A stretch of DNA of 7,976 bases from a virus: the IMG/VR virus record IMGVR_UViG_3300031760_001810, positions 1 through 7,976 of that record. One strand, written 5' to 3'. Below are positions 3,542 to 4,446 of this stretch, piece after piece; positions within the stretch are counted from its first letter, which is position 1, and each line of letters begins with the position of its first letter. The position numbers were made by a program, and so were the translations under genes. Below the pieces are notes generated by a model, which was not told the DNA's origin, did not search any database, and was given only the letters and a program-made list of their open reading frames with translations.

Positions 3542-4446
3542 TGCGTGAAGAAATTAATGTAATGATTGAAACCGCTCCTGAAATTGAATTGGAATTTTCT
3601 AATCCAATATATCGTGGCCCCAAAGGTGATAAGGGCGACCCAGGAGAAATGGGCCCACAAGGACCTGCGGGTGAAGCTGGTGTAGCTGGACCAAAAGGCG
3701 ACAAGGGCGACACCGGTGATACCGGCCCACAGGGCGCACAAGGTATTCAAGGTCCTGCTGGCCCACAAGGAGAACAGGGCATTTAGGGTATTTAGGGTCC
3801 GAAAGGTGATACTGGCGCGGCTGGTGCAACTGGACCACAGGGACCCAAAGGTGATACTGGCGAGTAGGGTCCGCAGGGGCCACAGGGGCCAGTTGGGCCG
3901 CAAGGTCCAAAGGGCGATGGGTTGTCTATTAAAGAAACCTATGCAACGATTGCCGCGATGAATGCCGACTATAATAATAATGACATTGCTATTGGAGACA
4001 TGGTGATGATTGTTTCCACTACTGATGATCCTGATAATGCAAAGATTTATGTTAAAACAGAAACTGCGTTTAGTTTCTTAATTGATTTGAGTGGTGCCGC
4101 AGGTATTCAAGGGCCGCAAGGTGAGCGTGGTGCTGCTTTTACCTATAATGATTTTACCGCAGAATAGTTAGCCGCATTAACTGGCCCACAAGGACCAAAA
4201 GGTGATACGGGAGCAACTGGCGCTACTGGCGAGCGTGGTCCGCAAGGTGAATAGGGTATTTAGGGTATTTAGGGCATACAGGGTGCTACTGGCCCAGCTG
4301 GTCCAAAGGGTGATACTGGTATTTATGTTGGTTCGACCGCACCAACTGATGGCTCTTTGGTATGGATTAATACCGCAGGTGATGCTGCTACTCTTGCTGA
4401 TGTAGCTGCGGCAGTGTTAGGAGTGATTGAAAATGGCTCTTACTGA
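3541..4446 (+). CDS. Collagen-like fibre protein (301 codons) containing 7 in-frame TAG codons.
   Basis: ATG 3541 has GAAGGAGG at 3521-3528. Track ORFs 3541-3786 and 3922-4167 lie in one frame, and that frame continues open to TGA 4444-4446. The only interruptions are TAGs at 3784, 3793, 3865, 4165, 4252, 4261 and 4270. It has three Gly-X-Y tracts, a globular insert ([27 protein letters not shown]...) and a C-terminal [20 protein letters not shown] motif typical of phage fibres. Confidence 0.85.
3616..3921 (+). repeat. Collagen Gly-X-Y tract 1: 34 uninterrupted triplets.
   Basis: Gly falls at every third codon from GGC 3616 to GGG 3919. Three Y positions are TAG (3784, 3793, 3865) and ten Y positions are CAA or CAG. 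Confidence 0.9.
4093..4137 (+). repeat. Collagen Gly-X-Y tract 2: 5 triplets.
   Basis: [15 protein letters not shown], read in the gene frame. Confidence 0.8.
4183..4326 (+). repeat. Collagen Gly-X-Y tract 3: 16 triplets.
   Basis: [23 protein letters not shown][TAG] GI[TAG] GI[TAG] [18 protein letters not shown]. TAGs are at 4252, 4261 and 4270. Confidence 0.9.

Follow-up and report, generated by a model that had tools for sequence, protein, structure and literature searches.

The first fibre gene of this phage locus is interrupted by in-frame TAG triplets, which raises the question of whether TAG is translated here, which amino acid it stands for and what decodes it. An earlier note, made from the sequence alone, had proposed that translation continues across the TAGs and that the Gly-X-Y register of the collagen-like protein serves as an internal ruler identifying the encoded residue as glutamine. 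We analyzed the whole stretch of 7,976 nucleotides (the window) together with related loci. The gene and its parts are as follows.

3541-4446, plus strand: collagen-like fibre gene 1, 301 aa, stop codon TGA, seven in-frame TAGs
3616-3921, plus strand: collagen tract 1, 34 Gly-X-Y triplets, TAG at Y at 3784, 3793 and 3865
4093-4137, plus strand: collagen tract 2, 5 triplets without TAG
4150-4185, plus strand: lead-in motif DFTAE[TAG]LAALTG, with TAG at 4165-4167, followed by PQG
4183-4326, plus strand: collagen tract 3, 16 triplets, TAG at Y at 4252, 4261 and 4270

The product of fibre gene 1 matched the Pfam family Collagen (PF01391) with E = 8.8e-27 and 93.1 bits (cut-off 27.2), and PHROG tail-fibre families matched it via the collagen repeats. 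On recount, every figure that the earlier note had given for this gene was correct. The six TAGs within the tracts all occupy the Y position of an unbroken Gly register, four as GI-TAG and two as GE-TAG, and the canonical glutamine codons CAA and CAG are likewise at Y in 15 of 15 cases (among them GIQ three times, GEQ once and GPQ ten times). At 4255-4281 the units GGT ATT TAG, GGT ATT TAG and GGC ATA CAG stand side by side, the last of them at 4273-4281 adjoining the TAGs of tract 3. The seventh TAG lies in the lead-in motif, where the note had placed it. That translation runs through the TAGs is borne out by the Gly register and the reading frame, both of which continue across each of them, and by comparative sequence. 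The same TAGs were found in independent ENA and JGI assemblies, the window being 99.85% identical to one ENA contig and ~99% identical to a JGI/IMG-VR contig and to a second ENA contig. The TAGs of fibre gene 1 are thus neither chance nor an assembly error.

The interpretation given in the note is supported both for read-through and for glutamine as the residue. By itself, however, the register narrows the choice only to residues usual at Y (Q, T, K, A or R), and the assignment to glutamine in particular is due to the isoleucine at X and to comparisons with other sequences. The note had proposed a count of residues at Y, and we made it in 120 collagen-like homologues, in which glutamine occurred 2692 times at Y and 67 times at X, counts that would be circular if database proteins had been called under genetic code 15, as some may have been. 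Because of this possible circularity, the DNA of two homologues (L129 and L130) was examined; their glutamine codons are CAA and CAG, and in-frame TAG is absent. Following isoleucine at X, Y was glutamine in 84% of the triplets (n = 513), lysine in 5% and threonine in <1%. Following glutamate, the three residues were much closer (Q 28.5%, T 22.7%, K 22.6%), and following proline 46% of the triplets had glutamine. With these frequencies, the four GI? and two GE? triplets of fibre gene 1 favor glutamine over lysine by about 1e5. The EQL..L.G lead-in that the note had named from other phage fibres was also recovered: the motif [TS].E?[LI]..L.G..G..G had glutamine at the queried position in 46/46 occurrences among the homologues, and in L129 and L130 this glutamine is written as CAA/CAG. 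In the non-identical collagen tracts of related phages, TAG was at Y in 26/26 cases and never at X or Gly.

A direct exchange between TAG and glutamine codons was seen at the level of strains and orthologues. The strain represented by L003/L006, which is 99% identical, differs from the window at 13 sites in fibre gene 1, of which 11 are synonymous third-position changes and two are TAG-to-CAG changes (4165 and 4261); all substitutions 3′ of the first TAG are synonymous if the frame is read past the TAGs. As had also been proposed in the earlier note, we tabulated the homologous columns. In the orthologue from L009 (65% identity), the seven TAG columns contain five glutamines, two TAGs and no other residue: TAG, Gln and Gln at the tract 1 columns 3784, 3793 and 3865, and Gln, Gln and TAG at the tract 3 columns 4252, 4261 and 4270. 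At the latter three columns, L008 and L010 have TAG, TAG and Gln. The lead-in column 4165 is CAG in L003 and glutamine in L008, L009, L010 and L018. Similar exchanges were found outside the fibre gene. The column of TAG 3053 in a 103-aa gene is glutamine in L008, L009 and L010; in the Neck1-like protein, conserved glutamine columns (181 and 193) interchange with TAG, and column 7308 is glutamine in seven relatives and TAG in one. Conversely, two glutamines in the capsid protein of the window (SPAD[Q]AAFR and YYDE[Q]EMTD) correspond to TAG in L008 and L009.

For a clade-wide profile, TAG was rendered as X in the translation of all loci, and the 309 TAG sites found in nine recoded relatives were compared with their homologues. 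The residues aligned to these sites were Q in 37%, E in 9.5% and K in 8.7% of cases, compared with 48%, 9% and 7.5%, respectively, at canonical glutamine sites, so that the two profiles nearly coincide. The log-likelihood of the TAG sites was -735 for glutamine and -1016 for lysine, the next best residue. The codons aligned with TAG were TAG itself (32%), CAA (15%) and CAG (12%), followed by GAA with 3.7%. The strain differences, the orthologue columns, this profile, the calibrated register and the lead-in motif are thus five lines of evidence, independent of one another, that all point to glutamine.

The other genes of the window are listed below.

32-703: tyrosine integrase, C-terminal part, TAG-free
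704-1018, minus strand: small divergent ORF, TAG-free
1166-1738, plus strand: scaffold protein, TAG-free
1753-2529, plus strand: major capsid protein, TAG-free
2601-2897, plus strand: head-tail adaptor, TAG-free
2888-3199, plus strand: 103-aa gene, one in-frame TAG (3053)
3212-3541, plus strand: small gene
4433-5596, plus strand: 387-aa gene, five in-frame TAGs (4574, 4613, 4667, 4757, 5192)
5610-6140, plus strand: collagen-like fibre gene 2, TTG start, GP-TAG three times at Y (5679, 5724, 5742) and a further TAG at 6126, four codons before TAA
6140-6925, plus strand: 261-aa gene, three in-frame TAGs (6473, 6506, 6671)
6930-7598, plus strand: Neck1/tail-completion-like gene (PHROG 5), three in-frame TAGs (6972, 7308, 7587)

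All 23 in-frame TAGs of the window, distributed over six genes, lie from 2888 onward. The block 32-2897 contains 0 TAG and 39 CAA/CAG codons, compared with 23 and 48, respectively, downstream of it (Fisher p = 1.2e-5), and TAG makes up a third of the glutamine codons in the late genes of the window (23/71). In the near-identical contig L001, TAG was also found in the terminase, portal and MuF-like genes. With TAG taken as a sense codon, the window shows a tightly packed plus strand operon whose genes have full-length homologues. In the plus strand genes, the ratio of in-frame to out-of-frame triplets is 0/177 for TAA, 0/205 for TGA and 23/75 for TAG, and, with TAG read through, all complete genes of the window end on TAA or TGA with normal gene spacing and no frame left open. 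The TAGs at 6126 and 7587 sit 3-4 codons before TAA, the former overlapping the ribosome-binding site of the next gene; these two could equally be terminators, or relic terminators backed by TAA.

Further features were noted along the window. Directly 3′ of the capsid stop codon, at 2538-2580, a perfect 12-bp hairpin (gaggctcatagg / cctatgagcctc) with a 9-nt loop is followed by a T-run and looks like an intrinsic terminator or attenuator; an automatic scan missed it because of the length of the loop. The fibre module at 3541-6925, composed of two collagen-like and two unknown proteins, is located between the head-tail adaptor and the Neck1/tail-terminator genes, and its proteins may be neck or head fibres. 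A '..DAIR.K..' motif is common to the N-termini of the proteins starting at 4433 and 6140, which both have a match in a single ORF of L028.

The relatives of the phage include a complete genome. L009 and L087 rebuild the IMG/VR contig 3300031994_000500 of 24,746 bp, whose 127-bp terminal direct repeat implies a circular genome of 24,619 bp; its read-through ORFs of at least 90 aa, some of which overlap, contain 64 in-frame TAGs. The standard-code sibling L013 and the recoded L001, L008, L009, L010, L017 and L021 form one clade with nearly the same genes and capsid identities of 65-94%. A giant gene, ~2,950 aa in translation, fills about one third of the 25-kb genome (L086:1-8753; L001:17487-20777; merged contig L009+L087:12636-21539), and no Pfam or PHROG match was obtained in the scanned N-terminal 1,097 aa of its product. 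Among the genes of this genome, none was recognised as having a tape-measure, lysis or replication function. The 52-kb ENA contig k141_100508 (L001, L131) has two giant genes, placed where a single gene would be expected in a circular 25-kb genome; a simple two-copy concatemer was discarded, as these genes are only 72% identical, and the contig is probably two related genomes joined in assembly. We found neither a near-identical deposited phage nor an integrated copy, and the closest capsid proteins, from Streptococcus and Staphylococcus prophages, showed 28% identity. Relatives were present in MAG bins of Nanosyncoccus, Gastranaerophilaceae, Lachnospiraceae, Ruminococcaceae and Anaeroplasma, taxa so inconsistent that they are uninformative on the host.

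To find what decodes TAG, we searched for tRNA genes with ARAGORN (default and -ps) and Rfam (at the gathering threshold and at E <= 5). None was detected in the window, in L086 and L001, which together cover ~29 kb of a near-identical genome, or in the circular relative. Among 80 related loci, ARAGORN and Rfam found tRNAs in a single distant one, and these were ordinary tRNAs. The L001 genes had no release factor or aminoacyl-tRNA synthetase among their precomputed Pfam hits, and in the complete recoded 24.6-kb relative no release-factor or synthetase gene was found either. Within the partial coverage of the loci, no gene limited to recoded genomes was seen; none is apparent because L013 has almost the entire gene set.

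When ARAGORN was relaxed to -ps80, a setting that gave 15-20 false positives per genome, one 'tRNA(cta)' or 'Pyl' was called at L001:7768-7855, upstream of the integrase and outside the window. The 45 nt conserved in it correspond to the 3′ half of a tRNA-Lys(CUU), and 68 of 84 metagenome matches to this pattern were intact tRNA-Lys(ctt) genes. As a suppressor the candidate was rejected, since its 5′ halves vary from one relative to another and the element is missing from the complete recoded one. These observations led us to read the region as an apparent attP and not as a suppressor. The conserved element as a whole (L001:7741-7910) is flanked by the MuF-like gene and the integrase, 340-510 nt before the start of the window, and is also present in L003, L008 and L010. 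It consists, in this order, of a box AATAATCAGGGGTAAAT, the tRNA-Lys(CUU) half from the anticodon loop to CCA, a hairpin terminator and a perfect TTGACA-17-TATAAT promoter, which is that of the integrase; AATCAGGG occurs three times. From its sequence it reads as an attP for integration into a host tRNA-Lys gene. The cassette of integrase and minus-strand ORF (window 1-1060, L001:7713-9222) lies within the head-gene cluster, with the MuF-like gene on one side and the scaffold gene on the other. This cassette is missing from the complete sibling genome L009+L087, and L010 lacks the integrase only. A hairpin (694-712) separates the convergent integrase and minus-strand ORF, and the latter has an 11/12 sigma-70-like promoter at 1068-1040.

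Were the TAGs true stop codons, the genes would have to be either pseudogenes in a decaying element or sources of several short polypeptides. The ORFs are indeed fragmented when the standard code is applied, and such fragments appear in the JGI calls for L003. We nevertheless consider this barely credible, because the Gly register and frame run on past every TAG, the strain differences after the first TAG are exclusively synonymous, the architecture is kept in diverged relatives, one of them a circular genome, in-frame TAA and TGA are missing from all of these genes, and no TAG is followed by a start codon that has a ribosome-binding site. That TAG encodes another amino acid (lysine, glutamate, tyrosine, tryptophan, leucine or pyrrolysine) also appears highly improbable. 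With the exception of pyrrolysine, each of them has a codon that differs from TAG by a single substitution, some TAG columns in weakly conserved proteins have Ser, Ala, Lys or Glu as counterparts, as in the poorly conserved 387-aa protein, whose TAGs have mixed counterparts (S, A, K), and relaxed ARAGORN labels one tRNA-like element CUA/'Pyl'. In the profile, however, every alternative was at least 280 log units worse than glutamine, the seven columns of fibre gene 1 contain only glutamine or TAG in orthologues, and lysine and threonine are rare at Y after isoleucine. A Trp signal of 8.7% in a first family-wide tally was traced to Cys/Arg-rich off-frame ORFs of distant standard-code relatives and was discarded, and the 'Pyl' element overlaps the tRNA-Lys half of the apparent attP. 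TAG is thus very probably a glutamine sense codon here, in the sense that the comparative data speak for evolutionary equivalence to glutamine, which is compatible with partial or mixed insertion.

A further rival concerns the mechanism and not the glutamine meaning. Read-through might occur without a dedicated suppressor tRNA if RF1 were absent or neutralised and near-cognate host tRNAs read UAG, chiefly tRNA-Gln(CUG) via G36-U1 wobble, inserting mostly glutamine and some tyrosine, lysine or tryptophan. This mechanism would suit a complete recoded genome that has no tRNA gene and a standard-code sibling with nearly the same gene set, as well as the report that suppressor tRNAs are detected in only 40% of TAG-recoded phage genomes (bioRxiv 10.1101/2021.08.26.457843). 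Yet read-through would have to be very efficient for a gene with seven TAGs and a relative's genome with 64, near-cognate decoding of UAG is known from E. coli engineered to lack RF1, and no candidate anti-RF1 gene was found, so that we regard this mechanism as distinctly unlikely. Most likely, the decoder is supplied in trans, as we infer from the lack of tRNA, release-factor and synthetase genes in the complete recoded relative; alternatively, termination may be reprogrammed by something not yet recognisable. It is possible, though rather doubtful, that the clade recoded TAG to glutamine with no decoder of its own. If this were true, the hosts might naturally suppress UAG as glutamine through a native tRNA-Gln(CUA), a weak or missing RF1 or both, and would then have a variant of the bacterial code that has escaped recognition; or ordinary tRNA-Gln might read UAG because a phage protein, as yet unannotated, reprogrammes termination.

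The insertion of glutamine at UAG is familiar from suppression by supE-type tRNA-Gln(CUA) and from programmed read-through, as in retroviral gag-pol, both of which are low-efficiency, single-site events. The present case shares with them the reading of UAG as glutamine and the single transition between TAG and CAG, but differs in the proportion of late-gene glutamine codons that are TAG. Bacterial and phage collagen-like proteins (PF01391; PHROG 819, 5073, 6320) resemble the fibre proteins in their Gly-X-Y repeats, where X is Pro, Asp, Glu or Ile and Y is Gln, Lys or Thr, and in having a lead-in 'F[TS].EQL..L.G' before the tracts; unlike in those phage fibres, glutamine is here partly encoded by TAG, and the genes lie between the adaptor and neck/tail-terminator genes and not after the tail genes. 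Our literature search for collagen repeats and code 15 found no paper linking the two.

The phage is a further case of the established TAG-to-glutamine recoding in gut phages and not a new phenomenon. Borges et al. inferred this reassignment in gut phages from terminase alignments and described two small temperate recoded clades of ~22-34 kb with Oscillospiraceae or Prevotella hosts, Topaz (22 +/- 3 kb, including a 23.7-kb Oscillospiraceae prophage) and Garnet, whose integrases avoid in-frame TAG (bioRxiv 10.1101/2021.08.26.457843). Like these, the present phage has TAG in structural and packaging genes, TAG columns that align with glutamine and a TAG-free integrase, and by published features it also resembles them in its genome of ~24-25 kb, in the mixed codes within one clade and in its animal/human gut source. 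It differs from Topaz and Garnet in that scaffold, capsid and adaptor genes are also TAG-free, in the location of the integrase cassette inside the head-gene cluster and its absence from one sibling, and in that the complete genome of the clade is devoid of tRNAs. In crAss-like phages, code 15 was confirmed by metaproteomics by Peters et al. (PMC9523058). The crAss-like and Lak phages show the same reassignment, concentrated in late genes. They are virulent phages of Bacteroidota of 100 kb to >500 kb that often carry suppressor tRNAs and release factors, in contrast to the present 25-kb temperate phage, whose distant capsid relatives reside in Firmicutes prophages.

Taken together, the window very probably belongs to the late (virion) gene cluster of a temperate tailed gut phage of ~25 kb, so far uncultured, that uses NCBI genetic code 15. 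In this reading, fibre gene 1 encodes one 301-residue collagen-like protein in which the seven TAGs are glutamine codons evolutionarily interchangeable with CAG and CAA, and the genes of the phage are terminated by TAA or TGA only; read-through and the glutamine meaning are shown at the level of comparative sequence. The integrase, divergent ORF, scaffold, capsid and adaptor genes contain no TAG and should therefore be makeable under standard decoding, whereas production of the fibre, neck, terminase and portal proteins would require suppression of TAG. The decoder would be a glutamine-accepting amber suppressor activity acting in trans from the host or a co-resident element. Such a split code might be regulatory, separating lysogeny from lytic genes, in line with the code-based lysogeny/lysis switch proposed by Borges et al. 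(bioRxiv 10.1101/2021.08.26.457843).

Standard-code gene calling shreds the fibre, neck, terminase and portal genes of such phages, and host-range proteins are therefore lost from databases. In recoded phages with collagen-like fibres, the register together with isoleucine at X offers a cheap, self-contained check of both read-through and the inserted residue, a neat argument and not new biology. The remaining interest lies in the complete genome without tRNAs and in the strain-level TAG/CAG polymorphism. L013 and its recoded relatives are a natural pair for studying how recoding arises. The complete recoded genome without a tRNA and the standard-code sibling of the same gene content would together be a compact system in which to study where amber decoding comes from and whether lysogeny and lytic genes are set apart by a split code.
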